Shown: positions 4,012-28,676 of the stretch, piece after piece
Layout: each line of letters opens with the position of its first letter
How positions within the stretch are numbered: position 1 is the first letter of the stretch
Source of the DNA: Thiotrichaceae bacterium
Lineage (GTDB): Bacteria; Pseudomonadota; Gammaproteobacteria; Eutrophobiales; Eutrophobiaceae
Direction: 5' to 3'
DNA length: 64,000 nt
Assembly (NCBI GenBank): GCA_012960105.1
Contig: DUBV01000005.1
Location: 77,000 to 140,999, forward strand
The notes under the pieces: generated by a model
What the model was told of the DNA's origin: nothing
Database searches by the model: none
Seen by the model: only the letters and a program-made list of their open reading frames with translations
Made by a program: the position numbers and the translations under genes

Positions 4012-5598
4012 TTGAGTAATAAAAAAGAATCTTATTGTTGGAGTGAGTATACTAATTATGTTGCGATTGGGTTTATTGCCCTCATAAGTATTTTCTATTT
4101 TTATTTATCTGCGAACAATAAAATAATTGGCTTAATTGCTGATGATGCTGTCTATTTATTGATGGCAGATTATTTTTCTCCATATTATAGTTCGCTTAGC
4201 CAAAGTGCTGCTTTCATTATTAAAGTAAGCCAGTTTCCTCCTTTATACCCAATCTTTTTAGCACTCTTCGGTGCAAGTAGCGAGAATATTGTTATTGCAC
4301 ATTTAGTAACAACTAGTTGTTTAATAGGAGCAATAATAGTTTATATCCTTTGGCTTAGAGAAAGTGCTGTAACGAAAACAGCGAGCCTATATTTGGCATT
4401 AATTTTTATTTGTTTACCTGCATCATTTCTTATGAATATTGATTTGTGGAGCGAGCATTTATATTTATTTTTTACAATGAGTGTACTTTTTTTAATTGAA
4501 AAAGCCAATGCAAATAAAAAATATTGGATAGTAGTTGCTTGTATTGTTGGACTGATCCCCTTGGTAAGAATAGTTGGCGTATCATTTTTAGCCGCATTTT
4601 TAATTTACCTTCATATTCATAAAATTCATGGGCGCTATAAATATTTTATAATTAGTGTTTTTCCTATTTTAATATGGAAAACCATTTCAATAAGTTTTAG
4701 CCCCTTGGACATGAACGAAGGCCCTTTGATGATTGAGGGTATTCTGCTTACATTTTATCAACATGATTTTGTAGATATTCTCAATAATTTATTTTTTGTA
4801 CAGTTTCAGAATTTATGGAATGGTTGGCATGAATGTATAGATGTACAAAAAAATATTTGGAGCGGAATAATCTGTGCATCTGTATTATTTTTTGCTCTAT
4901 TAAGTTGGTTGCCTCGGCTGTATAAAAAAAAGATTGATAGTATATATTTATTATTTTACTTAATAATAATTTGGATGTGGCCTGCACAAGATCATGACAT
5001 GCGATTTATGTTTGTTGTATGCCCTATTTTGTTTTATTACAGTTATTTATCCTTCTCTATGTTAATGAGGAATTATGCAGTAAAAAATATAAGCCATATT
5101 ATTAATTATGCGAGCATATTATTAATATTAATAATTATGCTGCCTACGAATTTATATGCCGTACATAGGTTATTTACAAGTATCCCTCCTGAGTTAAGTG
5201 ATTATCGAAATACGAGATACTGGATGACTGAGCCGGATAATCTCCAAACCGAAGTATCAATTATAATTTTAAATAGAATGATTGAGTCTTATAAAGATGC
5301 GAAGCAATTTATTCCAGAAAAAGATTGTGTGTATTCTGTCCATCAGGAACAGTTTATGTTTTATACACGTAGGATAGCGATGCCTCCGCCTAATGCAGAT
5401 ATAGTAACTGAAAAAACTTTTAAGAAAGGCGTAAGGAAATGTGAATACGTTCAAATTACTCATACAACTAGCCATCCTTATTACCCCGGAGGATATCCAA
5501 TTAATGAACTGGGAGGTAATTATAAATATTTATCTACAACTAGATTAGATACGGGAAATGATATTGCCGTCATCGGCGCACTTCTGCAGCTTTACTAA
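4012..5598 (+). CDS. Polytopic membrane protein, putative GT-C-fold glycosyltransferase (paralogue A)
   Basis: Many hydrophobic helices; first loop ADDAVYLLMA then FPPLYP, SE motif, RIVG; motifs shared with 23734 and 27120. TTG start uncertain. Confidence 0.7.
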   Translation: MSNKKESYCWSEYTNYVAIGFIALISIFYFYLSANNKIIGLIADDAVYLLMADYFSPYYSSLSQSAAFIIKVSQFPPLYPIFLALFGASSENIVIAHLVTTSCLIGAIIVYILWLRESAVTKTASLYLALIFICLPASFLMNIDLWSEHLYLFFTMSVLFLIEKANANKKYWIVVACIVGLIPLVRIVGVSFLAAFLIYLHIHKIHGRYKYFIISVFPILIWKTISISFSPLDMNEGPLMIEGILLTFYQHDFVDILNNLFFVQFQNLWNGWHECIDVQKNIWSGIICASVLFFALLSWLPRLYKKKIDSIYLLFYLIIIWMWPAQDHDMRFMFVVCPILFYYSYLSFSMLMRNYAVKNISHIINYASILLILIIMLPTNLYAVHRLFTSIPPELSDYRNTRYWMTEPDNLQTEVSIIILNRMIESYKDAKQFIPEKDCVYSVHQEQFMFYTRRIAMPPPNADIVTEKTFKKGVRKCEYVQITHTTSHPYYPGGYPINELGGNYKYLSTTRLDTGNDIAVIGALLQLY

Positions 5599-5605
5599 TT
5601 ATATT

Positions 5606-7381: not shown

Positions 7382-8131
7382 TTATATATCAACATTTTTT
7401 ACAAGCTCAATATCTACGAAACTTCCAAAGTCATTTGTGATTCGCAATAAAAACTTATCAAGCATGATAGCTAATGGAATAAAAATTTTTGGAATAAGAT
7501 TCCACTTTTTTAGTCCTCCACTTAGCCAATAAAATAAAGGTGTATGTGGTTTGTATTTAATCAATTTTAACTCGGGATATTTCTTTTGAAACAATTTTAA
7601 GTCTCTTCGAAAAACGATCCAAGTAAGAGCGCCATTTGCATCTGTTACTGGGTTACTTGATTCAAATGTCCATGAATTAGTTTTGTCGTCGTAATTTTCA
7701 TTGTGAAGGTATTTTAAAATCCATCGGCTAATTAAACCAATGTGTTGGTCGATCATGAGTATTCTTCCCTGAGGAGCTAAACACCGACTTACTTCACTTA
7801 GAAATAATTCTACATCTGAGATATGGTGAAAAACGTTAAGCATGCAAAATAGTCGAATACTATCGTTTTTAAAGGGCAATGTTTTTCCATCAATAACACA
7901 GTCTAACTCTGGAAATAAAATGACATCCGTTGTTATGAATTCTGAAATAAAATATTTTGTAAGCCCCGCTCCGGAACCCAATTCAATAGCTAGTCCTTTT
8001 TGGGGGCAGCGATTAAGTATTTCGGTATATTTTTGATAAGATTTTTGATAAAAATATTTTTTTGCAGCTGTATTAATAATACGCTTTTTTAGTTCTGAGG
8101 TATCCTCCGTTTCAACAAGCTTATTTGCCAT
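7382..8131 (-). CDS. Class I SAM-dependent methyltransferase
   Basis: IELGSGAG motif I, LPFKNDSI, NVFHHI, RCLAPQGRI; overlaps the upstream GT2 gene. Confidence 0.8.
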   Translation of the reverse strand: MANKLVETEDTSELKKRIINTAAKKYFYQKSYQKYTEILNRCPQKGLAIELGSGAGLTKYFISEFITTDVILFPELDCVIDGKTLPFKNDSIRLFCMLNVFHHISDVELFLSEVSRCLAPQGRILMIDQHIGLISRWILKYLHNENYDDKTNSWTFESSNPVTDANGALTWIVFRRDLKLFQKKYPELKLIKYKPHTPLFYWLSGGLKKWNLIPKIFIPLAIMLDKFLLRITNDFGSFVDIELVKNVDI

Positions 8132-9431
8132 GTGGCAAACCTAGCTTTAATCGAAGAATGCCGATGAGTGTTATCTTAAAAAGCATGCTGCCATGGTTAA
8201 ATCGATCAATATTCGTTTCCCCATAAGTCCGGGCACGATAACGTATTGGAATATCTTTTATTCCAAGTGCCATAACAGATGCGGGAAATAAAAGCTGGAA
8301 ATCACCAAAAGGATCGTGTTCTCCAAAGTCATCCCACCATTTAATAATTCTTGCATAATCATCACGGTGAAACAGTTTTGTGCCGCATAAAGAATCACCT
8401 AAAGGAACCTCCAGTATCCAACTTAAAAGTTTTGCGAAGAAAATATTTCCGAGCCAATTTAAAGGACGCATTGCTTGTCCTTCCATCGGGTAAACTAACC
8501 GGGTGCCGTTAATAAAATCTGCATGTCCATAATGAAAAGCATCTATGAATTGTGGTAATAGTTCAGGAGGCATAGAAAGGTCTGCATCCAGAATAGTCAG
8601 AAGTTCTCCTTTTGATTTTTCAAATCCAAGACGGACAGCATCACCTTTTCCTTTCCCCTTTTGTTGGAAAGTTTGAATTGAATAATTATCTTTAAATTCT
8701 TCCGCTATATTCAGGATCTCTTCCCATGTGTCATCTGTAGAATTGCCTTCTATAAATATAACCTCAGTCTCATTCTCTAGTTTAAGATCTATTAACCTTT
8801 CCATTATATCTCGAATATTTCCGTATTCATTCCTTGCTGGAACCACAATGCTGAGAGAACGTTTTGTTTGATCTACAATAATAGGTCGAACGGTAATTAG
8901 ATAAACTTGAGAAAACCATTTTATAAAAGGAATTTTTTCAAGGACAAGGTTAATAATTCTACCAAACCCAAATAAATTCCAGGGAAAAACGCCAACGCAT
9001 TTAGTTTGGATTATTTCATATCCACTAAGATCCAGTATATTTTTCAGATCCGTTCGTGTTAGGTAAGTTGTTGGCAATGGAGTCTTCTTAAGCCCCACTT
9101 TTTTTAGAAGTGAATGTGCCCAGGCAAAATATGGATTATAAAGCACAATTGCCAGACGAGAAAATCTATTTATTTTAGATTTAATATTTAACATTAAATC
9201 ATGGATATCATAATTATGATTTAGATTACCGTTAAGTAAGATGACTGATTTTTCTGAATTTGAAGAGGCAGTTAACTCTTCAAAAGAGGAACTAATATTT
9301 TTTTTATTTGCTTTGATTTTTTCAAAAAGATATAGCTTGTCATGCTCCATCGGTTTCAGCTGAACCAACGTATCTGCATAACTACTTAATTTCGATATTT
9401 CAGTTGCCAATTGATTAAGAACTGCGCGCAT
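8121..9431 (-). CDS. GT2 glycosyltransferase (polyprenyl-phosphate sugar synthase-like) with a degenerate methyltransferase-like N-terminal region
   Basis: C-terminal SIVVPARNE, EGNSTDDT, GKGDAVRLG, ILDADLS, DSLCGTK, YRARTYGETNI; about 190 extra N-terminal residues without a GxGxG motif. Confidence 0.82.
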   Translation of the reverse strand: MRAVLNQLATEISKLSSYADTLVQLKPMEHDKLYLFEKIKANKKNISSSFEELTASSNSEKSVILLNGNLNHNYDIHDLMLNIKSKINRFSRLAIVLYNPYFAWAHSLLKKVGLKKTPLPTTYLTRTDLKNILDLSGYEIIQTKCVGVFPWNLFGFGRIINLVLEKIPFIKWFSQVYLITVRPIIVDQTKRSLSIVVPARNEYGNIRDIMERLIDLKLENETEVIFIEGNSTDDTWEEILNIAEEFKDNYSIQTFQQKGKGKGDAVRLGFEKSKGELLTILDADLSMPPELLPQFIDAFHYGHADFINGTRLVYPMEGQAMRPLNWLGNIFFAKLLSWILEVPLGDSLCGTKLFHRDDYARIIKWWDDFGEHDPFGDFQLLFPASVMALGIKDIPIRYRARTYGETNIDRFNHGSMLFKITLIGILRLKLGLPHGK

Positions 9432-9697
9432 CAGTTTGCCTATTTGTATATTTAGAAAAGCGTCCTTAGGACGTGGAAAGGTTCAATGCTTATAAATTCA
9501 GAACCTGTTTATACATTCGACTGATACTATAGCCATTTGTTATTAATCTCAATTGTGTTGTTTTACTTTAATGATGATTAAGAATAGAAACATATATAAT
9601 TATTTGTTGCAGCTTCAATAATTTTATACTTAATCCTTATAAGTGATTTAATCATCAAACAGTATTATTTTATTTAAAATAGCTTGTTAAATTTAGC

Positions 9698-11509
9698 TTA
9701 GTTATTTTCTTCTCTTTCAAAAAGAATATGCTGGTCAATCCGTGCCATTTTTTTCGCTTGCTCTATATGATATAGCTTATGCTGCATATACTTTTCAGGA
9801 GTTAGCGAAGCTGCAGTGATATGTGATTCGACAAGAGCCGAATCTTGAGGTGCTGCGGGCAGAATACTGTCAATCATGTAATGTATTTGATCCGCTGTAT
9901 TTACATGTGAAATATCTGGATTCTTATTATTTAGTGTAATTAATGAAAAACCAGTGAATGACTTTAAGTCGAGATCTTCAGGCCATTTAGAAAGTTGCCA
10001 TTCAAAAGGGGATTGACGTATGTCAGGGATGAACGGGAATCGAGAATGACTGGTCAAAAAATAGTTACGATAATGGAATATAAGTAATACGGGTCGTATT
10101 GTTATCTGCACAAGTTTATTTTTTGCCTCTGTTAATTCTGCCATGGAGGCTCTAAAACTTTGTCCATAATAATATCGGGAAAAAAAAGCGAATTCCGGTT
10201 GCCAGTGTTTAGAAGGTTCAAGTGTCGAGTAAACAATCAAAGATTCTGTACTATATTGTTCACTAAGGTACTTTCCTACCTCTCGCCAATCTGATTTTTT
10301 TCTAATGGATTTAAAGTCAGCGACCGTAATTATTGCCGTGCTTATAATTATCACGGATGCAATTATAGTGACGAACTTTAAAGTATTTTCTTGATTGTAT
10401 CGAGTTAATAATATCCTGATTTTTTCCAAAGAATACGAGGAAAGCAGTAGAGCCATTGGGAGTAAATAAATAGCGTATGGAGGGCGGAAGGGAAAGCTAG
10501 TATGAAGACGAAATACTGTATAGTGAATAAAAAAACTAAGAGGGAAAAGGACTGTTAGTAGACATATCAAAGTGTGTTCGTTTTTATTTTTTTCGCTGAA
10601 AATAAATACTAAGCTTAAGCCGTACAAAATAGAAAATAGTATGGCAAAAGGTTCAAGTTGTACGAACCATGCTTGCCTAATATCATTAAATGAAAATTCC
10701 GATAATCGAGAAATAAAATACTCAAGGTTATGAACTTGTGTCTCATTTAAATATGATTGACCAAACTGTAATATTTTTAGAAAAAGTGGGAGGTATAGTA
10801 ATAAAGAGACTGATAGAATAATAAGTATAACAATAAGCCGAGTTTGTTGTGGGTAGAATGATGTCTTTTCGAGAAAGCCGTTCTTAGCTAAGTCTATTGC
10901 AAACTGGATAAAAAGAATGGTTCCTAAGCTTACGTATGTCGCTAAAGGAGAGAGAGTACGGCTCAATAGAAACGCGAAGCATAAGATAAAAAACAAAAAG
11001 TAACTGCGAGCTCTTACCCTATTGGAAGTTAATAAATACTGAAGACTAGTTAGCATTGCAAGCAGGAAAAAGACAGGAATGCTGTAAGGTCTAGCTTCCT
11101 GTGAGAAATAAATATGGTAGGGACTAAGTGCCATAATTAATCCGGAAAATGCAGCAATAGGCCAGCTGGCAAATGTACTGGATAAGAACATTATTAGTAA
11201 TACAGACCCTGTTCCCCATAAAGCGGCAGGAAAACGGATCATGTAGTCGCTTTCTGATAACTTGTAAAAAAGCGATCCAACTAAGTAATCTAAGGGCGGT
11301 TGTTGTTGTTGAATGGCACCTTTTATAACCTCAAAAAAGGTTTCTTTATAGTATGAAACCTGAAGGATTTCATCCACGAATAAACTTTCGTAATCAAGAT
11401 GATGAAGTCTCAATCCAAGTGCTAAACAAGTGATGAAAAAAAAGACGAACCACTTACTTGAAGTAAGTAGGCTAAAATTATAACGGCTGTTTAAAATCTT
11501 ATTCATCAT
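9698..11509 (-). CDS. GT39/PMT-like (GT-C fold) membrane glycosyltransferase
   Basis: LGLRL...SLFVDE, PPLDY, IRFPAALWG, ALSPYHIYFSQEARPYS, KSDWREV; multiple TM helices plus a soluble C-terminal domain. Confidence 0.8.
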   Translation of the reverse strand: MMNKILNSRYNFSLLTSSKWFVFFFITCLALGLRLHHLDYESLFVDEILQVSYYKETFFEVIKGAIQQQQPPLDYLVGSLFYKLSESDYMIRFPAALWGTGSVLLIMFLSSTFASWPIAAFSGLIMALSPYHIYFSQEARPYSIPVFFLLAMLTSLQYLLTSNRVRARSYFLFFILCFAFLLSRTLSPLATYVSLGTILFIQFAIDLAKNGFLEKTSFYPQQTRLIVILIILSVSLLLYLPLFLKILQFGQSYLNETQVHNLEYFISRLSEFSFNDIRQAWFVQLEPFAILFSILYGLSLVFIFSEKNKNEHTLICLLTVLFPLSFFIHYTVFRLHTSFPFRPPYAIYLLPMALLLSSYSLEKIRILLTRYNQENTLKFVTIIASVIIISTAIITVADFKSIRKKSDWREVGKYLSEQYSTESLIVYSTLEPSKHWQPEFAFFSRYYYGQSFRASMAELTEAKNKLVQITIRPVLLIFHYRNYFLTSHSRFPFIPDIRQSPFEWQLSKWPEDLDLKSFTGFSLITLNNKNPDISHVNTADQIHYMIDSILPAAPQDSALVESHITAASLTPEKYMQHKLYHIEQAKKMARIDQHILFEREENN

Positions 11510-17736: not shown

Positions 17737-17758
17737 ACTGTATGTTATTTAGTTAAAC

Positions 17759-19675
17759 ATGAATAGATTCATAATAAATAAAATCCAGCCTTTCTTTATC
17801 CCCTTTGCTCTATTATTTTCTTATTTTATTTATTCTCCCGGCTTTAGTGGAACTTTTCTTTTTGACGATGGTGTTAATTTAGGTCAATTCGTAGAAATAC
17901 GTGTAGGAAACGAAGGCCTATGGCAATTTTTCAGTCATACAGAGCGTCCGTTAGCATTTCTCTCGTTCATGCTTAACGACAATGTTTGGCCATCTGCATC
18001 TGAAAGCTTTATTAAAACAAATGTTTTGTTGCACTTGCTTTCTGCTTGTTTATTGATGATTTGCCTTATTCTAATCGGTAAAAATCTAGCTTGGGACAGA
18101 AGAAAACGTGAATCAGTAGCCATGTTTGCTACCTTAATATGGATGGTTCATCCATTTTTTGTATCAACGGTACTCTATATAGTACAGCGGATGACTATAT
18201 TGTCAGCGATGTTTGTTGTACTTAGTTTAATTTCTTATCTGTACGGCCGCCTACAACTTAATAAAGGCAATAATAAAGCTTGGTTTTGGCTAATTTTTGC
18301 AACACCAATCTTTGGCTTATTTGGGTTTCTTTGCAAAGAAAACGCCGCATTAATACCTTTCTATTTACTAACTTTCGAAGCAATACTATTTTCTAATGAA
18401 AAACAGACGTCACGTTATTATCTTTTATGGAAGAGATGTTATATCTATCTACCAATAATTATTATGCTCGTGTGTGTTTTTATATTTAAAAATTCATGGA
18501 TAAATGATTATTCATTTCGAAGTTTTAGTTTAATTGAGAGGCTGCTAACACAGGCAAATATCCTCGTATATTATCTGTTTATGTTATTGATACCGAAATC
18601 ATCTACGACAGGACTCCATTATGAAAACTATCCAATTTCGACGAGTTTAATTGAACCTTGGACAACCTTATTAGCCGTTATATTTATTGTAAGCATTATT
18701 TTGTTTTCAATTTTCTATCGAAAGAAATATCCGATATTAACATTTTCGATACTTTTTTTCTTTTTTGGACATTTAATGGAGTCTACTTTTATTGCATTGG
18801 AACTATATTTTGAGCATCGTAACTACTTGCCTTCAATGATGTTTTTCTTTGCTCTGGCCCATATTTTGTTTCTCTGTTATGACAAATATAAAAGGAGCGT
18901 CATTTTAGCGGCGCTTGCTATAGTTTTTACATATAGTGGATTAACTTACGCCCGATCGGATTTATGGGGGAACCCATTATTGCTTTTGTCGGTCTGGACG
19001 GAAAATAACCCAGGTTCTTCTCGCAACTATATAGAAGGACACGTTCAAGCACATCGACTTCATCGATATGATTTGGCTCAAAAATTCCTGGAAAGGGGTA
19101 TAGAAGCGTTACCCGATAATATTTTTTTACGAATTGGTTATACTAGCTATGGTTGCGGAAGAGGGTCATTGCTGAAAAGTGATGTAGAAAAGCTGAAGAT
19201 CATGTTGGGAGAGACGGAACAAACTATTTCGCATTATCTTTATCAGAATCTTGCACAATTATTAGGAACTTCTTTTTCTCCTGATTGCAAACTTATAACG
19301 CATGAAGATATGAGAGAGATTATTTCTTCTGTATTAAATAACCCTAATATCTTGACGTATGAACTTAGACTACATGAAATGTTACATTTAATGGGGCGGT
19401 TTGAATTGCAAGTGGAAAATTATTCAGAAGCAAAAGAAGCGTTTTTAAAATCTTTGTTGCTTAATCTAAATCCATCTACTGCTCTCCAGCAAGTTGCTCT
19501 GATTGCTACTTTTGAACAATATGAATTAGCTTATGAATATCTAAAAGAAACAAGAGAGTTGATTTATGGGAGAGATGATGTAGAACTGCGTAAACAATCT
19601 GCAGGTTGGGAGGAATTTGAGTATATGGAATCTGTGTTATTAGAGGAATTGAAAGACATGCCTTTGAGAAATTAA
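17759..19675 (+). CDS. TMTC-like (GT-C fold with TPR-like tail) membrane glycosyltransferase; candidate pilin O-glycosyltransferase
   Basis: FLFDD in the first loop, RPL, NVLLH, HPFFVSTVLYIVQR, KENA, FEHRNYLPS and C-terminal TPR-like helices, in the same order as TMTC-family motifs. Confidence 0.72.
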   Translation: MNRFIINKIQPFFIPFALLFSYFIYSPGFSGTFLFDDGVNLGQFVEIRVGNEGLWQFFSHTERPLAFLSFMLNDNVWPSASESFIKTNVLLHLLSACLLMICLILIGKNLAWDRRKRESVAMFATLIWMVHPFFVSTVLYIVQRMTILSAMFVVLSLISYLYGRLQLNKGNNKAWFWLIFATPIFGLFGFLCKENAALIPFYLLTFEAILFSNEKQTSRYYLLWKRCYIYLPIIIMLVCVFIFKNSWINDYSFRSFSLIERLLTQANILVYYLFMLLIPKSSTTGLHYENYPISTSLIEPWTTLLAVIFIVSIILFSIFYRKKYPILTFSILFFFFGHLMESTFIALELYFEHRNYLPSMMFFFALAHILFLCYDKYKRSVILAALAIVFTYSGLTYARSDLWGNPLLLLSVWTENNPGSSRNYIEGHVQAHRLHRYDLAQKFLERGIEALPDNIFLRIGYTSYGCGRGSLLKSDVEKLKIMLGETEQTISHYLYQNLAQLLGTSFSPDCKLITHEDMREIISSVLNNPNILTYELRLHEMLHLMGRFELQVENYSEAKEAFLKSLLLNLNPSTALQQVALIATFEQYELAYEYLKETRELIYGRDDVELRKQSAGWEEFEYMESVLLEELKDMPLRN

Positions 19676-20023: not shown

Positions 20024-20440
20024 GTGAATATGATTAACAAAAAAAAAGAAACGACAAATATTGAGCCACTGGTAAATTTGTTACCACCATATACTGATGA
20101 AAGAGGTGCTATTTATCCTTTAGTTGATGCAACTATGCAGAGCGCAGTATTAATCACTTCAAAGAAAGGAAGTATACGTGCTAATCATTATCATAAAACA
20201 GATTGGCATTATTGCTATGTATTAGAAGGAATAATTGAATATTATCATCGCCCACACGGTTCAAAAGATGAGCCCGAGTGCGTTATGGTAAAGAAAGGCG
20301 AGATGATGTATACCCCTCCAATGGTTGATCACGCAATGCTATTTCCCGAAGATACGGTTTTCCTTACATTGGGCGGAAACCCGAGAGACCAAGAGACTTA
20401 TGAAGCGGATATTGAGCGTGTTGAATTGATAACATCATAA
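20024..20440 (+). CDS. Cupin-fold protein, putative NDP-sugar isomerase/epimerase (FdtA/RmlC-like)
   Basis: DERG, RANHYH, and downstream PPMVDHAM cupin motifs; first gene of a sugar operon. Confidence 0.72.
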   Translation: MNMINKKKETTNIEPLVNLLPPYTDERGAIYPLVDATMQSAVLITSKKGSIRANHYHKTDWHYCYVLEGIIEYYHRPHGSKDEPECVMVKKGEMMYTPPMVDHAMLFPEDTVFLTLGGNPRDQETYEADIERVELITS

Positions 20441-20448
20441 ACATACTC

Positions 20449-21687
20449 ATGGCTTTTTATCACCGAGATTCTTGCAGGTTGTGCAGTAGTGCAAATTTAG
20501 TCAAAGTTCTTTCGTTAGCATCAACGCCACCTGCGAATGCATTTGTTTCAAAAAATGAGTTAGATGAAAAACAAGATTGTTTTCCTCTTGAACTTTGGTT
20601 TTGTCGAGGCTGTTCGCACCTGCAATTATTAGACATTGTTGCTCCTGATATTTTATTCAGTGACTACGTTTATGTATCAGGAACATCGTCAGTCTTTGTT
20701 AAGCATTTTGAAAATTATGCTTCTACTATAATAAATTATGCCGAGTTGGATAAAGATAGTCTGGTTGTTGATATAGGTTCCAATGATGGTACGCTTTTGA
20801 GATGTTTTAAAGATGCTGGGTTTCGTGTCTTGGGTATTGACCCCGCAGCTAAAATTGCTGAGCAGGCTACAAAGTCGGGGATAGAAACGATACATGCCTT
20901 TTTTAATAAAGAAATTTCTGAAGAAATAAAAATGTCTTTCGGGCAGGCGGATGTTATCACCGCTAACAATGTATTTGCTCATATCGATAACCTCGAAGAA
21001 GTTATTTCTGGCGTCTACTCATTATTAAAAAATGATGCAATATTTGTCTTCGAAGTCTCATATTTACTGGATATGTATGAAAAAACTTTATTTGATATGA
21101 TTTATCATGAACATCTTGATTACCACTCGGTACAACCGCTGATGCAATTTTTTAAACGATATAACATGGAAATCATTAAAGCTGAGCGTGTAAATACTCA
21201 TGGTGGAAGTTTGCGTTGCTATGTCCAGAAAACTACAGCTAAGAAAAATGTTGATTCCAGTGTCAGTGAATTTATAAGCATGGAAAGAAAGCATAAGTTG
21301 GACGATGAAAATACTTTTATTTCATTTGCAAGAGAAATAAAAGAAAAAGGACAGGCTCTCAGATCTTTGCTTTCTGATTTAAAATCATCGGGTAAACGGA
21401 TTGCGGGGTTTGGCGCTCCTGCTAAGGCAACTACATTAATGTATCATTTTGGTATAGATGAAAATGATATTTCATTTATTATTGATGATAGTCCTATAAA
21501 GCAAGGACTATATAGCCCCGGACTTCATATTCCGGTACTGCCAGCATCGGCTATTGAAGAATTCAAACCGGATTATTTACTTATTCTTGCCTGGAATTTT
21601 GCAGACTCAATTGTAAGCAAGAATAAACAATTTTTGAACGATGGTGGTCAATTCATCATCCCGCTCCCTGAACTAAAAATTATATGA
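20449..21687 (+). CDS. NDP-sugar C-methyltransferase (TylC3/EryBIII/NovU-like)
   Basis: Zn site CRLC...CRGC, VVDIGSNDG, ANNVFAH, FDMIYHEH, HGGSLR, GFGAPAK, LAWNF. Confidence 0.86.
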   Translation: MAFYHRDSCRLCSSANLVKVLSLASTPPANAFVSKNELDEKQDCFPLELWFCRGCSHLQLLDIVAPDILFSDYVYVSGTSSVFVKHFENYASTIINYAELDKDSLVVDIGSNDGTLLRCFKDAGFRVLGIDPAAKIAEQATKSGIETIHAFFNKEISEEIKMSFGQADVITANNVFAHIDNLEEVISGVYSLLKNDAIFVFEVSYLLDMYEKTLFDMIYHEHLDYHSVQPLMQFFKRYNMEIIKAERVNTHGGSLRCYVQKTTAKKNVDSSVSEFISMERKHKLDDENTFISFAREIKEKGQALRSLLSDLKSSGKRIAGFGAPAKATTLMYHFGIDENDISFIIDDSPIKQGLYSPGLHIPVLPASAIEEFKPDYLLILAWNFADSIVSKNKQFLNDGGQFIIPLPELKII

Positions 21688-22745
21688 ATACATTTTTACT
21701 AATGACAGATGTTGATGAAATTATTGAACAATTAGATGAAATAACTGCTGATTATGATGGTAAAACAATATTGTTAGCAGGAGGACTTGGATTTCTTGGT
21801 CGCTATTTTATGTCTGTTTTCGCAAGATTAAATGAAACAAAGTTTAGTGAGCCATGTAAATTAATTATTCTTGATAATTTAATTACATCAGGAAAAGCAA
21901 GTAACTACATTGATCAATATCCAGAGTTTAAGTTCTTAGAACAAGATATAACAACCCCGTTAAATATTGATGAGCATATAGACTTTGTTATTCATTGTGC
22001 TGGAATAGCAAGTCCCTTTTACTATCGTGCACATCCTTTAGAAACAGCTGATGTGGCTATTGCTGGCAATAGAAACCTGTTGGAAGTTGCTAAGAGTAAT
22101 CAGGCACGCTACACATTTTTCAGTTCTAGTGAAATTTATGGTGACCCCGATCCTAAGCATATTCCAACACCTGAAAGTTATAGAGGCAATGTTTCTTCTC
22201 AAGGTCCGCGAGCTTGCTATGATGAAAGTAAGCGGATGGGGGAGACACTATGTTATATATATAACCACCTGCATGGAACTGCGACGACTATTATTCGGCC
22301 ATTTAATGTTTATGGGCCGGGGATGCAAGAGGCTGATTATCGAGTATTACCTAACTTTGCAAGTCTCATAAAAGCCGGGAAGCCTCTTAAGGTTTATGGA
22401 GGAGGGAATCAGACCCGGACTTTCTGTTATGTGACTGATGCGATCAATGGTTTTCTAAGGGCTATTGCCAAAGGAGTTCCTGGTGAAACCTATAATATCG
22501 GTAATCCTAAACCGGAAATTTCTATGGTTGAACTCGTGCAACACTGTAGCGATGCAATTGGAAAGAAAATTGATCATAATATTATAGAGTATCCTGATTC
22601 TTATCCTGCCGATGAACCTAATAGACGTTGTCCTGATATCCGTAAAGCTAAATTACAGCTTGAATATGTTCCTAATGTTGATCTTAAGACTGGATTGCAG
22701 CGCTTTTTGTCATGGACAGATGATAATTTTGTTGGGGAACAATGA
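21684..22745 (+). CDS. NAD-dependent epimerase/dehydratase, UDP-glucuronate decarboxylase (UXS)-like
   Basis: GGLGFLG, AGIASP, SSSEIYGDP, GPRACYDESKR, FNVYGPGM, QTRTFCYVTD, RRCPDI. Confidence 0.82.
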   Translation: MNTFLLMTDVDEIIEQLDEITADYDGKTILLAGGLGFLGRYFMSVFARLNETKFSEPCKLIILDNLITSGKASNYIDQYPEFKFLEQDITTPLNIDEHIDFVIHCAGIASPFYYRAHPLETADVAIAGNRNLLEVAKSNQARYTFFSSSEIYGDPDPKHIPTPESYRGNVSSQGPRACYDESKRMGETLCYIYNHLHGTATTIIRPFNVYGPGMQEADYRVLPNFASLIKAGKPLKVYGGGNQTRTFCYVTDAINGFLRAIAKGVPGETYNIGNPKPEISMVELVQHCSDAIGKKIDHNIIEYPDSYPADEPNRRCPDIRKAKLQLEYVPNVDLKTGLQRFLSWTDDNFVGEQ

Positions 22746-23656
22746 GTGAAGACTTAAAAATCGGTCTTATTGGAGCAGGGAAATGGGGAAAGAATATAAT
22801 TCTTACGCTGGATACTATACCTGGGGTTCAACTCACACATATAGCTACTCGTATACAGAAATCAGTAGAAAATATACCGTCATCCTGTGTTGTTAGTACG
22901 AACTGGAGAGATGTAGTTACGAATTATGATTTAGACGGTATCATTATTGCCTCCCCTGCTGGTTTGCATGCTGAAATGTCTGCATATGCTTTGAAACAAA
23001 ATAAAGCCGTTTTTGTAGAAAAACCTATGACATTGACAGTAGTTGAGGCGCAACAACTTTACGATCTTGTTGAAGAATATTCCGGTATTTTACATGTTGA
23101 CTATACAGACATAGCCAATCCTGCATGGCAAAGTTTAAAGGACAATCTATCTTTAGTCGGAGATATTAATAGCATAGAGGCTAAATTCGGTGGTATGGGG
23201 CCAGTACGAGCAGATGTGACGCCGCTATGGGACTGGGGGACACATCCAATAGCTTTAATTATTAGTTTGCTAGAAGAGCCAATTCACGTCAGTGCTAACT
23301 ATCGGTATAAAAATCATACTGAAATTGGTTATATTGAAGATATCAATATAGTACTTGATTACAAAATGATTAATGCAAAGGTTTCGGTAAGTAACAATTA
23401 TTCAGAGTCAATACGAAAATTATCTATTGAAGGAAATAAAGGAAGCCTGATCTATGATGATAAAGCTATTAATAAATTATTGTTCATAACAAAAAATATA
23501 ACAAAAAAAATAGAGTACTCAAAAATTTCTCCATTAAGATCTGCTTTAGATCGTTTTAAAGAATCTATTGTTAAAGGTTCGCCATATTATAAAGATGTGT
23601 CATTAGGATTGCGAGTGACAAAAGTGTTATCAAAACTAGATGCAGTTTTAAATTGA
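22742..23656 (+). CDS. Gfo/Idh/MocA family oxidoreductase
   Basis: IGLIGAGKWG, ASPAGLH, VFVEKPM, WDWGTH; ATGA overlap with the upstream gene. Confidence 0.85.
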   Translation: MSEDLKIGLIGAGKWGKNIILTLDTIPGVQLTHIATRIQKSVENIPSSCVVSTNWRDVVTNYDLDGIIIASPAGLHAEMSAYALKQNKAVFVEKPMTLTVVEAQQLYDLVEEYSGILHVDYTDIANPAWQSLKDNLSLVGDINSIEAKFGGMGPVRADVTPLWDWGTHPIALIISLLEEPIHVSANYRYKNHTEIGYIEDINIVLDYKMINAKVSVSNNYSESIRKLSIEGNKGSLIYDDKAINKLLFITKNITKKIEYSKISPLRSALDRFKESIVKGSPYYKDVSLGLRVTKVLSKLDAVLN

Positions 23657-23733
23657 GCAAGTCGTTAGCTTCGATGTGGACTGCATAAACATTCAATTTA
23701 TTTATGAAAAAATATTAAATTATTTTATAAGTT

Positions 23734-25290
23734 ATGAATAATCGATATATTTTTGAATCTACTTCAAACATTGTAATAGCAGCTATCATAATAGCTGTTT
23801 CTATTTTCTATTTTTACTTTACTTCAGGTGATAGTGTTGTTGGTATGTTGGGAGATGATGCGGCATATTTGCTGCAGGCTGAGCTGTACTCGCCCTGGGT
23901 TAATGATAGTTCCCCCGCAATTGATTACATACAAAAAAGGAGTTTTTATCCGCCAATATATCCTATCGTATTAGGAATGTTTGGCGCGGATACTCATAAC
24001 TTAATTCTTGCCTCTAACTTAACCGTATCTTTTTTATTATTATCATTTTTAATCATTGGATATTTTGTATATGTTCTAACGGAATCAAAATTTACAGCTA
24101 TATTAATCGCTTTAATGGTAGCTTTTCTTCCAAAATCATTATTGTTTTCGCAAGATTTGTATAGCGAATTTCTTTTTATGTGTTTTATTTACGCGGCCTT
24201 TATATTAGTGAATGATAATGAGATTAGTTCAGAGCAGTGGTTGTTAGGGGCATTAGTTATTTCGTTAGCTTCATTAACAAGATCAATAGGAATCGGTTTG
24301 TCTTGTGCTTTTATAATATTATTAATTATTAAGCGTCCAAGGTATTATTTTTATTATATTTCTCTTTCCTGCATGCCATTTTTAATGTGGATGTTTAATC
24401 GCTATGTGTTGATTGGTGATGTGAGCTATATTACTCAGATGGTGGCTAATTCAAATGCAATAAGTGCTTATGATGTCTTTAGTTTATTGCAAAATAAAAT
24501 TATTATTTTAATTCAAAGTTGGTCGAGACTTTTTACGTCCAAAGTGGACAATACTATTTTTGTTACTTCATTTTTAGTGATGTTTTTTATTCTTTCGTTA
24601 ATTGGATTCTATTCACGATTGATTAAATATAAACTCGATGCGATATTCATTCCTGTTTATTTGTTACTAGTAATAATATGGCCGTTTAACGAGTTTTATT
24701 TATTAGAGCGGTTTATTTATCCCGTCTTTCCCGTACTGTTAATCTATATAATAATAGCCATTCAAAAATTATTTTCTCAAAAAAAATATCAATACATTTC
24801 ATTTGGCGTAATATTATTATTTAATATAAGTATCGTTTTGCCTACGAGTATCAGCTATATAAAGAGAGGTTTCATAGATATTGAACCAAATTTAAAGCCT
24901 TACACAAGAACAGGACACTGGTTGGCGACAAAAGATTACGAAGATGCTTTTCAATATGCATCTATTTTAAAAGTAGTAATCGAATCATTACCGTACGTAT
25001 CAAATTATGTGCCTGAAAGCGCATGTATTTATTCGGCTCGGACACCTTTAGTATTATTATTTACACATCGTAAAAGTTTGTACTTTCCGGATGTAAAAAA
25101 TTCGGCAGATGATTTCCATGAATATACTAGTACATGTGATTATTTTCTTGCTATGCCAATGACATCTTCGAATAAGCAATCTATATATTACCCAATAGAA
25201 ATAGTTAAGTCTGATGCTAGATATGAGGTGTTTCCAATTGCAGATGAAAAACAGGGTAAAAATAAAATATTTCTAATTAAAAGAATTTGA
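23734..25290 (+). CDS. Polytopic membrane protein, putative GT-C-fold glycosyltransferase (paralogue B)
   Basis: GDDAAYLLQA, YPPIYP, YSEFLF, TRSIG, RFIYPVFP; shares motifs with 4012 and 27120. Confidence 0.72.
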   Translation: MNNRYIFESTSNIVIAAIIIAVSIFYFYFTSGDSVVGMLGDDAAYLLQAELYSPWVNDSSPAIDYIQKRSFYPPIYPIVLGMFGADTHNLILASNLTVSFLLLSFLIIGYFVYVLTESKFTAILIALMVAFLPKSLLFSQDLYSEFLFMCFIYAAFILVNDNEISSEQWLLGALVISLASLTRSIGIGLSCAFIILLIIKRPRYYFYYISLSCMPFLMWMFNRYVLIGDVSYITQMVANSNAISAYDVFSLLQNKIIILIQSWSRLFTSKVDNTIFVTSFLVMFFILSLIGFYSRLIKYKLDAIFIPVYLLLVIIWPFNEFYLLERFIYPVFPVLLIYIIIAIQKLFSQKKYQYISFGVILLFNISIVLPTSISYIKRGFIDIEPNLKPYTRTGHWLATKDYEDAFQYASILKVVIESLPYVSNYVPESACIYSARTPLVLLFTHRKSLYFPDVKNSADDFHEYTSTCDYFLAMPMTSSNKQSIYYPIEIVKSDARYEVFPIADEKQGKNKIFLIKRI

Positions 25291-25364
25291 TTTTTTTTAC
25301 AGGGTTAATATTATTTTGAGGAGTTTGCCTATTAATTAGTGCGTGTAGATGTAAGAGTTAAGTA

Positions 25365-26060
25365 TTAATGGAAGAATAATCGAGCTCTGATAATCATCAG
25401 TAAAACTGCAATAGAGTGATAAGCTTTGATTTTTTTCCCATCTTCGTATGTGCGCCCATGATAACTAATAGGGACTTCATAAAATACTTTTCCTTTTCGA
25501 ACTGCTTTAGATAAAATTTCTGCTTGTTGTTCCCAACCTTCAGTTTTTAGTTGTTCCGCATCAATCAATGAACGACGAATAACAAGATAACAACTATATA
25601 TATCAGTAAAAGTTGTATTGTTAAGAATATTAAATAAAAATGTTATCAGTCTATTTCCTATTTTATGCCAGTAATAATGAACGCGTGTGCATTGAGGAGC
25701 AATAAACCTGCTTCCATATACGATATCAGCAGAAAATTTTAAAATGGGGTAAAATAATAAACTATAGTCATCAGGGTCATATTCTAAATCTGCATCTTGA
25801 AATAATATATATTCGCCCTTAGATGCTTTTAATCCTTCTTTAATCGCTGCGCCTTTTCCTTTGTTATGAGAGAGTTGAATAATTTTTGAATATAGCTCTG
25901 GGTGTTGTTGCAATACGAGTAGAGTTTCATCTATTGAACCATCATCAATGATTATTATTTCAAAAGTGATGTCATCAATATGTTGTGCATTTACTTTATT
26001 AAGTAATTTTATAATGGAAGCGCTTTCATTATAAACAGGAATTAAAATAGAAATTAACAT
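25365..26060 (-). CDS. GT2 glycosyltransferase, DPM1-like polyprenyl-phosphate sugar synthase
   Basis: SILIPVYNE, DDGSIDET, NKGKGAAI, QDADLEYDP, VYGSRF, YHGRTYEDGKKI. Confidence 0.88.
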   Translation of the reverse strand: MLISILIPVYNESASIIKLLNKVNAQHIDDITFEIIIIDDGSIDETLLVLQQHPELYSKIIQLSHNKGKGAAIKEGLKASKGEYILFQDADLEYDPDDYSLLFYPILKFSADIVYGSRFIAPQCTRVHYYWHKIGNRLITFLFNILNNTTFTDIYSCYLVIRRSLIDAEQLKTEGWEQQAEILSKAVRKGKVFYEVPISYHGRTYEDGKKIKAYHSIAVLLMIIRARLFFH

Positions 26061-26186
26061 GGCATATTTATGGGAATTTATAGTCCACTTAAAATAGTAG
26101 AGTAGAAACCAATTGTCAAAATAATAAATATATTGTAACTAAAAATAAAGTAAGATGTATGAATTTTATCATCAGGCATTACAGAT

Positions 26187-26909
26187 ATGAAAAATATAAT
26201 TGTTGAATCTATTGAGAAGCCTCAATATTTTGGCCGAGACTTGGAAGCGATGTCTTTTGCTACTAACTACCATAACTGGATTGCAGATGAATTTAAGCCA
26301 TACTTAGGAAATAATGTTGCTGAAATTGGAGCGGGAACAGGAAATTTTTCAAAATTACTAATTGAAAGCACAAAAAAAATAGTTGCATTTGAGCCTTCAG
26401 AAAATATGTTTCCTCAGCTCCAAGAGCAACTGAGGGAATACAAGAGTATTACAAAAATTAATAATTATTTTGTTGATGAATATTTAAAGTATAAAGAACA
26501 CTTTGACTCAGTTGTATATGTCAACGTGTTAGAGCACATAGAAGGTGATGAGAAAGAACTTAGTTGTGCCTATAGTGGGTTAAAAAAAGGGGGGCACATA
26601 TTAATTTTCGCTCCTGCACTCTCTTATTTATATAGTGATTTTGATCGAAAAGTTGGGCACTATCGACGTTATCACAAAAAAGATCTGATAATGATCGTTA
26701 AACGAGCAGGATTCAAAATAGTAGATGTGAGGTATTTAGATTTTATTGGTATTTTACCGTGGTATGTAGCTCTTGTTCTACTAGCGAAGACCCTATCCGC
26801 GGAGAAAGTTTCGCTATATGATACTTTAGTTATTCCAATTGTACGGAAAATAGAGAGCATAATTACTTTTCCAATAGGAAAAAATATCCTGTTGATAGCA
26901 CAAAAATAA
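26187..26909 (+). CDS. Class I SAM-dependent methyltransferase
   Basis: EIGAGTG, FDSVVYVNVLEHI, LKKGG, DRKVGHYRRY. Confidence 0.85.
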   Translation: MKNIIVESIEKPQYFGRDLEAMSFATNYHNWIADEFKPYLGNNVAEIGAGTGNFSKLLIESTKKIVAFEPSENMFPQLQEQLREYKSITKINNYFVDEYLKYKEHFDSVVYVNVLEHIEGDEKELSCAYSGLKKGGHILIFAPALSYLYSDFDRKVGHYRRYHKKDLIMIVKRAGFKIVDVRYLDFIGILPWYVALVLLAKTLSAEKVSLYDTLVIPIVRKIESIITFPIGKNILLIAQK

Positions 26910-27119
26910 TTACAGAAGATTAGGGGTGTTGATTTATTTGCTGTTTATGTACTTATTTTATATAAATTCTCAAATACCCTAATATTTTAGTCCTCATTAT
27001 TGCATTCTTTACTAAGGCTGTTTTTTTGATTATGAAAAAATTATGTTTAAGTCTGATCAGGCCATGTCTCATTTTATTAAGATAGTCATGTTGGAATTTT
27101 CATAAACGGTCTTAAGAAA

Positions 27120-28676
27120 ATGATTTCTAGAAATATATTTCTCCAGAAAATCTTCATGCCAATTGGAGCATGCTCAGTAGTCATTATTTCTATTATTGCC
27201 ACTTTATATTTTATATGGACGTGGAGTCCTATTCTCGCTCAGTTTGGTGGAGATAATGCAACATACCTGCTGACAGCTAAATTGTTTTCACCTTATTCTC
27301 AATCAACTTACGCTGTAGAATATTTTTCTATTCATAGTCGATACCCCCCGCTTTATCCATTGTTATTGGGTTTGCTAGGAGGAGGTGAAAGTGTATTAAT
27401 TGCACACTTATTAACGACATCATTTCTAATAGCGGCCATTTTAGTTTTGTATAAATGGGCTTCCATCATGGGGCTCGGAAGATTACATTCTTTAGTGTTG
27501 ATTGTTATTTTTTCTATGATGCAAAATACGTATATGCAGGCTTTATCAATACTTAGTGAAAATCTCTATTTGTTGCTAAGTTTGTCAGTGCTGTACATAA
27601 TTTCGTTGAAAGATAATAGTGAAAAATGGGCTTGGGTTGCAGTGCTTCTCATTGTATGTGCTACTTTGACTCGAAGTGCAGGACTTCCTTTGGTTTTGTC
27701 TTTTATCATCTATCTATTTATAAATAGAAATAATAATAAATATCTATTTTCATTCTCTGCAATATTGCCAATGATCGCATGGGGGCTATTTAATAATCAG
27801 GATAGCATTTCATATGCCGGTCAATTTTCTGATCGTTATTCTACTGACCTTGTTTCTATATTATTACAAATACTAGATCAATCAGTTTATATGTTAAGTA
27901 TATGGCACCGGTCATTTACTAATGGAAACACTGGATATTTATTATTATCTATTATTGCTATTTTTTGTTTTTTTGGAATGATGTACAGTTTATATTTAAA
28001 GAGAATAGAAGGAATATATGTTTTTTTGTATATGTTAATGGTTCTTGCTTGGCCATACCCTGCTGAATCTATGAGGTTATTGTACCCTGTCATTCCTGTT
28101 CTTCTGGTTCAAACGAGCTTCATGATAAAAAATTTAATGCCTAGTTTGAATTCTGTATATGGCTTCCATAAAGGAAATTTTGTTATACAAGGAATATTAC
28201 TAATTATTTTAGTGCCAAATCTTGTGTTAACAATCAACAGGTTTAATGCGCCGGTTGATGAGTATTTAATGCCCTATAAACGGACGTATGATTGGTATAA
28301 TCCAAATCCTGTTGCAGCTGTAAATGGAGTGAGATTTACTCATGGAGTAATTTCAAGCCTTAAAGATGCGAGGAACTATATACCTGAGGATCAATGTGTT
28401 TATAGTATAAAGCCTTCTATCATTGGCTTATATATGGAGCGAATAAGTCATAAACCTCCTGTTGCAAGTATCGATGATATAAGTTTTTATAAACTTATAG
28501 AGCAATCTGAATGCAGACATTTTTATTTGCTGCCATTTGCAAGCCCTACTTATAATCAGCCATTCTATCCTTACGAAAGGATGAAGGATTATATTGACAT
28601 TATTAAAGTATATTATTTAGATGGCAACAATAAGGGAAATATTGTTGCTATATTGGCTAAGTTGAATAATATTTAA
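27120..28676 (+). CDS. Polytopic membrane protein, putative GT-C-fold glycosyltransferase (paralogue C)
   Basis: GGDNATYLLTA, YPPLYP, LSENLY, TRSAG, RLLYPVIP; shares motifs with 4012 and 23734. Confidence 0.72.
   Translation: MISRNIFLQKIFMPIGACSVVIISIIATLYFIWTWSPILAQFGGDNATYLLTAKLFSPYSQSTYAVEYFSIHSRYPPLYPLLLGLLGGGESVLIAHLLTTSFLIAAILVLYKWASIMGLGRLHSLVLIVIFSMMQNTYMQALSILSENLYLLLSLSVLYIISLKDNSEKWAWVAVLLIVCATLTRSAGLPLVLSFIIYLFINRNNNKYLFSFSAILPMIAWGLFNNQDSISYAGQFSDRYSTDLVSILLQILDQSVYMLSIWHRSFTNGNTGYLLLSIIAIFCFFGMMYSLYLKRIEGIYVFLYMLMVLAWPYPAESMRLLYPVIPVLLVQTSFMIKNLMPSLNSVYGFHKGNFVIQGILLIILVPNLVLTINRFNAPVDEYLMPYKRTYDWYNPNPVAAVNGVRFTHGVISSLKDARNYIPEDQCVYSIKPSIIGLYMERISHKPPVASIDDISFYKLIEQSECRHFYLLPFASPTYNQPFYPYERMKDYIDIIKVYYLDGNNKGNIVAILAKLNNI

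Follow-up and report, generated by a model that had tools for sequence, protein, structure and literature searches.

What do three related membrane proteins contribute to a bacterium that encodes them in the neighbourhood of its major type IV pilin gene, and did they arise there side by side? These questions are raised by a 64,000-nucleotide stretch of the Thiotrichaceae bacterium assembly GCA_012960105.1 (contig DUBV01000005.1, positions 77,000 to 140,999 of the forward strand), hereafter the window. Three of its open reading frames (ORFs), copies A, B and C, had been described as an unnamed and locally expanded family of GT-C-like membrane proteins, in what is called here the original prediction. 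Our results point to the three copies being, very probably, active GT-C glycosyltransferases, and to their being old lineages gathered in one region. As to their task, we find ourselves evenly divided over one scheme, in which they would be periplasmic enzymes that use polyprenyl-phosphate sugars and extend or branch a glycan carried by the pilin, possibly with a pentose.

Sequence signature and extent of the family

The three copies are homologous from end to end. In pairwise BLASTP comparisons, every pair shares 27% identity over about 490-510 residues, with E values of 5e-53 (A/B), 4e-40 (A/C) and 2e-32 (B/C), and the significant mutual similarity expected of paralogues is thus found in all three pairs. 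The boundaries proposed for these 518-528-aa ORFs are exact, and all the motifs of the proposed ordered set are present. In the three-way alignment, D[DN]AxYLLxAxx[FY]SP reads DDAVYLLMADYFSP in copy A, DDAAYLLQAELYSP in copy B and DNATYLLTAKLFSP in copy C; it is followed by [FY]PP[LI]YP (FPPLYP, YPPIYP and YPPLYP, respectively), SExL[YF] (SEHLY, SEFLF, SENLY), Rx[VIA]G (RIVG, RSIG, RSAG), Yxx[T]xxW (YRNTRYW, YTRTGHW, YKRTYDW) and [FY][IV]PExxC[VI]YS (FIPEKDCVYS, YVPESACIYS, YIPEDQCVYS). Only the WP motif is looser than the 'WP..R' initially noted, the Arg standing 7-9 residues after WP in the three copies. The second Cys common to all of them is C477 (copy A numbering, used throughout). When a profile of the three copies is searched against the whole genome (2.54 Mb in 116 contigs, 98.5% complete), exactly three matches are obtained, all within the window.

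The same positions stand out in the wider family. In an alignment of 52 sequences, D44, Y48, P76, P77, Y79, S147, R186, C439, C477 and P496 are invariant. Among 139 further representatives, D44 is found in 138, Y48, E148, R186 and R331 in all 139, and C439 and C477 in 138 each, so that D44, Y48, E148, R186, R331, C439 and C477 are retained in 51-52 of the 52 and 138-139 of the 139 sequences. The family therefore appears to be well defined by a clear signature. An invariant Asp just after the first transmembrane helix (TM1) is a hallmark of GT-C enzymes. Copy C carries DN in place of DD at this point, which had been taken as a sign of divergence; this does not hold, as the first Asp alone is invariant (52/52 and 138/139) and the second position varies (D in 34, N in 6 and A in 6 of the 52; D in 46, N in 42 and S in 31 of the 139). 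Because only the first Asp of the motif is invariant, the DN of copy C is ordinary within the family.

The family is indeed unnamed, since no Pfam or NCBIfam model claims it. Copy A scores 26.0 bits against PMT_2 (PF13231), just under the gathering cut-off of 26.1, copies B and C have no Pfam match at E<=1, and an NCBIfam scan of the three copies gives no match; PMT_2 is matched by 17 of the 52 family members at E<=0.01. The three copies and their kin appear in this respect to be distant relatives of PMT_2, not members by the curated rule. Profile searches against all PDB chain sequences return nothing at E<=10, ArnT included.

In an exhaustive profile search of 1.84 billion representatives, the matches at E<=1e-3, 1e-10 and 1e-30 number 18,780, 6,208 and 778, respectively, counts because of which we regard this as a mid-sized family and no rarity; among the 150 matches listed, all or most of the profile is covered, at 389 bits or more. 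A word-indexed homologue search, which gives 60 clusters, nearly all unnamed, understates the size of the family compared with the exhaustive one. Named contigs with members come almost all from uncultured Gammaproteobacteria (Thiotrichaceae, Sedimenticolaceae, Rudaea, Chromatiales, Nevskia), with a single cultured carrier, Nevskia soli DSM 19509. Matches from other phyla cover the N-terminal third only. This range comes from the pattern-based locus scan described below, which favours copy-A-like sequences.

Fold

The AlphaFold2 model of copy A, built on the 52-sequence alignment, has a pLDDT of 90.4 and a pTM of 0.92. Compared by Foldseek with the PDB, it gives 23 matches at E<=1e-3, all of them GT-C enzymes, including AglB, PglB, ArnT, ALG9/12, STT3 and AftA; GT-C enzymes thus come on top in the comparison with ArnT- and PMT-type proteins that had been proposed as a check. 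A VIA search, which is independent of Foldseek and compares the query with structure representatives, leads to the same result: the top 20 rows are all GT-C-fold chains, with Z scores of 11.1-22.4, and the next rows fall to 7.3. The highest scores are those of Pmt1/2 (22.4, 350 residues aligned), ALG12 (22.1), ArnT (21.2), Pmt4 (20.6), AglB (20.4) and PglB (19.9). The ArnT alignment comprises 426 residues over positions 10-528, and its Foldseek E value is 3.7e-5.

In the model, TM1 is the helix 10-34, and D44 starts the helix 43-55 right after it. The GT-C-like character first proposed, with an acidic residue after TM1, is hence borne out by the fold and by the place of the invariant Asp44. 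The C-terminal domain is predicted to be of alpha/beta type, of about 110 residues with few strands. The C-terminal globular domains of AglB and PglB resemble copy A at about 417-528, with Z scores of 7.3 and 6.9, a weak likeness to be taken as a lead only. Judged from this model, the copies are most likely an unnamed branch of the GT-C superfamily, ArnT/PMT-like in having a multi-helix membrane domain and a small C-terminal alpha/beta domain.

Evolutionary history

The copies had been thought to result from a local expansion, and the tree contradicts this. It holds 66 rows and was built with quick IQ-TREE and SH-aLRT support. ORFs were included if they had 440-700 aa and at least 380 aligned residues, a filter by which the fragmented members of L022 and L050 are absent, and the duplicate window locus L006 was set aside (L, G and C numbers designate our loci, genomes and contigs). 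Copy A falls in a 7-row, bamD-linked clade of the genus (support 100). Copy B belongs to a 6-row clade (support 100) together with a congener, two metagenome-assembled genomes (MAGs), a pilA-adjacent gene (L056) and a gene adjacent to a GT2_231 homologue (L020; for GT2_231, see Table 1). Copy C is grouped with two congeners (support 97), near a pilA-linked Nevskia clade. A recent tandem expansion is ruled out by these three separate supported clades. Because each copy is also more closely related to genes of other genomes than to the two paralogues beside it, the copies appear to be anciently diverged paralogues, old lineages gathered in one region.

Further paralogues were sought in the window. 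Neither of two other ORFs of about 530 aa is a fourth copy, 43906-45495 being non-hydrophobic and without Pfam match and 53213-54802 being LeuA-like. The former (P0006, minus strand) is an unrelated, soluble ORF of 529 aa between a BrkB-family gene and proS. The membrane proteins P0004 and P0005 are also rejected as members, with hhalign probabilities of 0.16% and 0.36%.

The presence of the family in the genus is patchy, with one to three matches in 11 of the 22 other species. Stop-containing remnants are found in G005 (C2:468420-469872) and G013 (C2:42622-43191), and at G049:C2:592301-593812 lies a member with internal stops or in several pieces. These broken members suggest that such genes may still be gained and lost. 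Copy A is tied to bamD within the genus: its TTG start lies 26 nt past the stop of bamD, on the same strand, and this synteny is repeated in L004, L005, L007, L016-L018 and L022.

The pilA-to-suhB glycosylation island

The features of the window that bear on the function of the copies are collected in Table 1.

Table 1. Family members of the window and the pilin and sugar-related genes near them (window positions; SDR, short-chain dehydrogenase/reductase; NDP, nucleoside diphosphate; UXS, UDP-xylose synthase)
Feature	Position	Strand	Length (aa)	Remarks
Copy A	4012..5598	+	528	TTG start; unnamed GT-C family; bamD-linked genus clade
Second module near copy A	7382..11509	-		Methyltransferase 7382-8131, AglJ/ArnC-like GT2 8121-9431, P0005 9698-11509
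pilA, major type IV pilin	17260..17676	+	138	Pfam Pilin 7.7e-25, N_methyl 1.7e-10
P0004, TfpW-type pilin glycosyltransferase candidate	17759..19675	+	638	GT-C ~1-425, TPR ~418-636
Cupin-like protein	20024..20440	+	138	First gene of sugar-modification run; Cupin_2 5.3e-6
NDP-sugar C-methyltransferase	20449..21687	+	412	Methyltransf_14 1.9e-54, Methyltransf_13 6.3e-19
UXS-like SDR, divergent	21684..22745	+	353	Best solved match UDP-glucuronate decarboxylase, 4.4e-56
GFO/IDH/MocA sugar oxidoreductase	22742..23656	+	304	Pfam/NCBIfam scan
Copy B	23734..25290	+	518	Family as copy A; different clade
GT2_231, soluble DPM1-like polyprenyl-phosphate sugar synthase candidate	25365..26060	-		Adjoins copy B
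Methyltransferase	26187..26909	+	240	Pfam scan
Copy C	27120..28676	+	518	Family as copies A and B; third clade; DN replacing DD
GT2_285, GtrB/ArnC-like polyprenyl-phosphate sugar synthase	28708..29565	+		C-terminal membrane anchor; conserved partner of TfpW-type gene
Methyltransferase	29580..30344	+	254	Pfam scan
GT4 Leloir glycosyltransferase	30372..31433	-	353	Glycos_transf_1 4.1e-37
LPG_synthase_TM-family membrane protein	31662..32606	+	314	PF03706 1.9e-12
gmd, GDP-mannose 4,6-dehydratase	33196..34230	+		Last sugar gene before suhB/trmJ; boundary set against G012, G022

The first part of the window reads gdhA, yfiH, rluD, bamD, copy A, then, on the minus strand, nadE, a methyltransferase, an AglJ/ArnC-like GT2, P0005 and sucDC, and finally pilS, pilR, pilA and P0004. 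Thereafter come the cupin, the C-methyltransferase, the UXS-like SDR, the GFO oxidoreductase, copy B, GT2_231 (minus strand), a methyltransferase, copy C and GT2_285, followed by a methyltransferase, GT4 (minus strand), the LPG_synthase_TM protein, gmd, suhB and trmJ. The pilin itself is rich in Ser and Thr.

Two congeners allow the limits and the core of this region to be recognised. In G012, pilA is followed by a TfpW-type gene (59-61% identical to P0004), a GT2_285 orthologue (67% identical), DUF354, an AsnB-like gene, an unknown gene, three methyltransferases, a fused oxidoreductase, an LPG_synthase_TM protein, an acetyltransferase, suhB and trmJ; G012 has no family member. In G022, the order is pilA, TfpW-type gene, GT2_285 (61%), GT4s, SDR, member, canonical UXS, member, suhB and trmJ, with no member between bamD and nadE. 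The TfpW-type gene and GT2_285 are thus adjacent in both congeners, and it is between them that the block 20024-28676 of the window, with copies B and C, is located. By this comparison, the stretch from pilA to suhB is a glycosylation island of variable make-up: the three congeners have different sets of genes in it, and its core is the TfpW-type enzyme and GT2_285. Upstream of pilA, G012 differs as well (L085, about 14630-18223 of the part fetched from G012:C3): neither pilS nor pilR occurs between sucC and pilA, nadE has a short form of 279 aa, the sucC match is in two pieces and the block from bamD to pilA is rearranged.

The island is not marked by a tRNA. Promoter and terminator scans remain at the level of shuffled sequence (69 vs 81.2 and 12 vs 8.6; 41 vs 39.2 and 5 vs 5.1) and give no evidence of operons, with the exception of a GC-rich, terminator-like hairpin with a T-run at 17709-17726 (plus strand), between pilA and P0004. 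The glycosylation genes downstream of it may depend on read-through or on promoters of their own.

P0004 has 'FLFDDG' after TM1, and its AlphaFold2 model has a pLDDT of 81.3. In VIA searches, its GT-C domain matches AglB (Z 16.7), Pmt1/2 (16.4) and ArnT (15.1) and its C-terminal TPR domain matches PilW (Z 11.2); in Foldseek, TPR proteins come on top. In 11 of the fetched loci, pilA is followed by P0004 homologues, which frequently come two in tandem. TfpW, the pilin D-arabinofuranosyltransferase of Pseudomonas aeruginosa group IV strains, is described as encoded downstream of pilA; its periplasmic loop 1 bears a DDx motif, and the protein ends in a TPR domain (bioRxiv 10.1101/2020.04.19.049825). 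P0004 has this published architecture, combining GT-C and C-terminal TPR domains directly after pilA.

The two small GT2s of the island resemble synthases of polyprenyl-phosphate sugars. The best matches of GT2_231, which has no hydrophobic segment, are dolichol-phosphate-mannose synthase (DPMS, 5.3e-17), ArnC (4.7e-11) and GtrB (9.4e-10); those of GT2_285, with hydrophobic segments at 208-271, are ArnC (6.9e-14), DPMS (4.1e-14) and GtrB (4.1e-10). Homologues of GT2_231 adjoin members in L020, L039, L048 and L057, and those of either GT2 adjoin members in these loci and in L009. A GT2_285 homologue directly follows the TfpW-type gene in G012 and G022 and stands beside it in L023, L029, L032 and L056. 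Each copy has a different small GT2 or another sugar gene nearby, and it is plausible, as formerly suggested, that each one adds a different sugar or linkage. Near copy A lies the second module, with a GT2 of 436 aa whose catalytic domain is AglJ/ArnC-like and is preceded by an N-terminal extension of 190 aa. The same module includes P0005 (603 aa), a multi-pass membrane protein that has 'FVDE' following TM1 and matches PMT_2 weakly (E 0.0047); it is probably a fifth GT-C of the window.

The SDR two genes upstream of copy B matches UDP-glucuronate decarboxylase far better than any other solved protein (next match 1.7e-28) and is 34-35% identical to canonical UXS. The run 20024-23656, together with gmd, looks like a pathway to a C-methylated or branched deoxy or pentose sugar. 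Because a divergent UXS-like SDR is found there with a C-methyltransferase, a cupin and an oxidoreductase, the sugar made near copy B may be modified or branched. Canonical UXS (matching human UXS1 at E 1.5e-118 and 1e-115, with other matches no better than about 1e-36) adjoins members in nine loci, six in the genus, two in Nevskia and L034. Small DPMS/ArnC/GtrB-like GT2s and UXS-like enzymes thus recur beside members in the genus, in Nevskia and in one further MAG locus. In the genome of the window, canonical UXS is located next to ugd on the 6.3-kb contig C18. This ugd, a UDP-glucose dehydrogenase gene (L084, 3368-4779, minus strand), consists of two overlapping ORFs, one of 307 aa (N-terminal and central parts) and one of 163 aa (C-terminal part), a split that could be due to a frameshift or an assembly error.

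Finally, a Pfam scan of the island genes gives no match to Wzx, Wzy, WaaL, initiating phosphoglycosyltransferase or ABC-transporter families. The lack of Wzx, Wzy, WaaL and an initiating enzyme fits stepwise addition from polyprenyl-monophosphate donors better than transfer of a preassembled block.

Association with pilin genes in other genomes

A co-occurrence with pilA had been suggested; it stands for the genus of the window and four other lineages, and fails for most of the family. The locus scan used the patterns DDAxYLLM[AT] and FPPLYPxLL[AS], which come from a 20-sequence alignment and are biased toward copy-A-like sequences. Among the 68 loci fetched, 49 have a full-length member, and a pilin-like gene, recognised by a class III signal-peptide motif, occurs in the fetched flank of 10 of these (within 5 kb in four). 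All 10 have a P0004-like gene next to pilA. They represent five lineages with differing arrangements, the genus of the window and four others: (i) in Sedimenticolaceae (L023/L029), the member lies between pilR and pilA; (ii) in Nevskia, the order is pilA, two TfpW-type genes, GT2_231, UXS and two members, as in L048 of Nevskia soli DSM 19509; (iii) a Chromatiales MAG has a member locus with pilA and a TfpW-type gene; (iv) on a gammaproteobacterial chromosome (L056), the member is 117 nt upstream of pilA. Outside the genus, the loci with members adjoining pilA and TfpW-type genes are thus L023/L029, L032, L039/L048/L057 and L056. Three pilin-free loci (L020, L034 and L037) adjoin trmJ and/or suhB, the far boundary of the pilA-suhB island.

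The TfpW-type gene is a near-constant companion. Among 41 relatives, it is present in 12 of the 13 member-carrying genomes vs 12 of the 28 member-free ones, and it is also found in 9 of 10 distant genomes whose members apparently stand alone. In the larger distant genomes, proximity of a member to TfpW-type genes is confined to G046 (31.6 kb) and G049 (about 31 kb, fragmented).

Proposed function and alternatives

One scheme could bring these observations together. The enzymes would work on the periplasmic side of the membrane, taking one sugar at a time from polyprenyl-phosphate-sugar donors. Catalysis would fall to Asp44, after TM1, and donor binding to Glu148, Arg186 and Arg331. Cys439 and Cys477 would form a disulfide in a periplasmic C-terminal domain, which we infer because this invariant pair is located in a soluble C-terminal domain. 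The donors would be made by the neighbouring small DPMS/ArnC/GtrB-like GT2s, fed by the sugar-nucleotide genes of the island, and turned across the membrane by a flippase, for which the LPG_synthase_TM protein is our candidate. For modules of the copy-B type, the donor would be a pentose derived from UXS, through UDP-glucuronate decarboxylation. A TfpW-type enzyme would start the glycan on the pilin, copies B and C would extend or branch the same glycan, and copy A would act on it or on another envelope acceptor. The result would be a pilus surface chemistry that differs between species. We see equal chances for and against an action of copies B and C on the pilin glycan; that the donor sugar is a pentose is a tentative suggestion, somewhat unlikely at present.

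Several observations weigh against this scheme. No pilin-like gene is present in the fetched flank of 39 of the 49 member loci, and the neighbours are mostly unrelated housekeeping genes in those of the pilin-free loci that were scanned with Pfam (22 of the 39, 67 ORFs). Copy A is itself 11.7 kb from pilA, between bamD and nadE, with nothing pilin-specific around it. G019 (87% complete) and G044 carry members and have no TfpW-type match. The larger distant genomes have up to four matches each, mostly dispersed, the nearest TfpW-type gene being 154 kb away in G042, 171 kb away in G047 and on other contigs in six more. The co-occurrence of members and TfpW-type genes is thus suggestive only, because TfpW-type genes are common in the class (12 of the 28 member-free genomes) and related genomes do not count as independent. 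The UXS-like SDR of the window is divergent and adjoins a C-methyltransferase, and no GtrA-, ArnE/F- or MATE-type flippase has a Pfam match among the island ORFs of at least 100 aa.

Some of these points would suit enzymes acting on lipopolysaccharide, be it lipid A, core or O antigen, or on a different polysaccharide of the envelope, in the manner of ArnT, the Gtr systems and GT136; the proximity of pilA would then reflect only a recombination-prone glycan island. The absence of pilin genes from most loci and the dispersed, multiple members of larger genomes would be expected in this case, and copy A directly follows bamD, a gene of outer-membrane biogenesis. ArnT is also the closest protein in overall architecture, and the canonical UXS contig, with ugd, an AsnB-like gene and SDRs, resembles a polysaccharide locus. 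Three-component systems for the periplasmic addition of side chains are moreover widespread (PMC11127046). However, copies B and C are enclosed by the TfpW-type gene and the GT2 that is its conserved partner, unrelated lineages have members immediately upstream of pilA or between it and pilR, the presence of members is nested in that of TfpW-type genes (12/13), and the island is devoid of Wzx, Wzy, WaaL and ABC-transporter genes. We therefore regard a role on envelope polysaccharide as unlikely, while taking it seriously.

Each member could alternatively be a PMT-like protein O-glycosyltransferase, placing sugars directly onto Ser/Thr, either of the pilin or of several proteins of the periplasm or outer membrane. 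It would then work alongside the TfpW-type enzyme and not on the product of that enzyme. Pmt1/Pmt2 are the best fold match of copy A and Pmt4 follows closely, the PMT_2 match is borderline, the C-terminal domain is weakly like the peptide-binding C-terminal domains of AglB and PglB, and the pilin is Ser/Thr-rich. Members nevertheless have neither the TPR- nor the MIR-type protein-binding domain of TfpW and PMT, and a Z score of about 7 is within the VIA range for a common arrangement. The near-constant company of a TfpW-type enzyme suggests a dependence on it rather than a parallel activity, and this alternative seems to us very unlikely. It is hardly credible that the members are non-catalytic GT-C-fold proteins, such as scaffolds or lipid-carrier-binding subunits, even though 3 of the top 20 VIA rows are PIG-U, a non-catalytic subunit of the glycosylphosphatidylinositol (GPI) transamidase (Z 14.3-15.0), since Glu148, the Asp that follows TM1 and two Arg residues are conserved across the 52 and the 139 sequences, as in active GT-C enzymes, and genes for donor-synthase GT2s are adjacent.

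Returning to the extension or branching of a pilin glycan from lipid-linked sugars, a more specific version can be put forward. The members would be pentosyl (xylosyl) transferases using a donor of the undecaprenyl-phosphate-xylose type, made from UDP-xylose by a DPM1/GtrB-like GT2, and, together with a TfpW-type initiator, they would build a branched pilin glycan sugar by sugar outside the cytoplasm. We consider this version quite unlikely, the locus pointing to a lipid-linked xylose-type donor as a possibility. A phrase search for such a donor in the literature collection available found no report, and a search for pilin xylosylation, judged on titles and openings of abstracts, found none either.

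Comparison with known systems

Glycosylation of type IV pili shapes phage resistance, adhesion and antigenic variation. To our knowledge, only two types of enzymes are well studied in Pseudomonas, TfpO/PglL-like ones and TfpW. The locus suggests that, in some Gammaproteobacteria, a TfpW-type enzyme is joined by additional GT-Cs of the unnamed family, each fed by a lipid-sugar synthase of its own. Part of this family may or may not, with equal likelihood, have been drawn into TfpW-type pilin glycosylation islands in an accessory capacity; the family signature (778 representative clusters at E<=1e-30) and the cultured carrier Nevskia soli DSM 19509 make this idea testable. The copies are like TfpW, a GT-C encoded with pilA and using a lipid-linked pentose, in lying in or beside the island of the TfpW-type P0004. 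They differ from it in having no TPR domain and in not being directly downstream of pilA in the window, and they have no profile similarity to P0004 (hhalign probability 0.16%).

ArnT, the undecaprenyl-phosphate-L-Ara4N (4-amino-4-deoxy-L-arabinose):lipid A transferase of CAZy family GT83 (PDB 5F15/5EZM), has a similar size, with a membrane GT-C domain and then a small periplasmic alpha/beta domain. The occurrence of an ArnC-like GT2 and a UDP-glucuronate-decarboxylase-type SDR nearby is also reminiscent of the ArnA/ArnC/ArnT logic. Unlike ArnT, to which they show no detectable sequence relationship, the resemblance being in fold only, the copies have a signature of their own (D-x3-Y, PP-x-Y, SE, R, WP, R and two Cys) and are placed in the context of a pilin island, not of a lipid A modification operon.

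A second comparison is with three-component periplasmic glycosylation (GtrA/GtrB/GtrC; GT136 of Citrobacter youngae), in which a synthase of lipid-linked monosaccharide is associated with a GT-C (PMC11127046). Here also, polyprenyl-phosphate-sugar-synthase-like proteins, GT2_231 and GT2_285, are encoded with the copies, and the likeness would extend to single sugars being added outside the cytoplasm and to extra enzymes diversifying the sugar. The GT136 system differs in its synthase, which depends on phosphoribosyl pyrophosphate (PRPP) and is not a GT2 as here and in Gtr, and in the beta-rich carbohydrate-binding module (CBM) described for it, the C-terminal domain of the copies being predicted as small and alpha/beta, with few strands. 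Among the island ORFs of at least 100 aa, no GtrA or MATE flippase was found and the only candidate is the LPG_synthase_TM protein; unlike in O-antigen systems, the likely acceptor would be a pilin glycan.

The mycobacterial arabinan GT-Cs are all among the fold matches of copy A (VIA Z 11-17). AftA, AftB, AftD and EmbA/B/C are diverged GT-Cs, each credited with adding a lipid-linked pentose through a linkage of its own, and, as in the window, several diverged GT-C enzymes are thus found in one organism. They are nevertheless much larger and have other C-terminal domains; their donor, decaprenyl-phosphate-arabinofuranose, has another biosynthetic origin, and they act on a cell-wall polysaccharide as acceptor. 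If the members were xylosyl transferases, they would constitute a protein-linked counterpart of mycobacterial arabinan assembly, in which the content of the island would set species-specific pilus surfaces.

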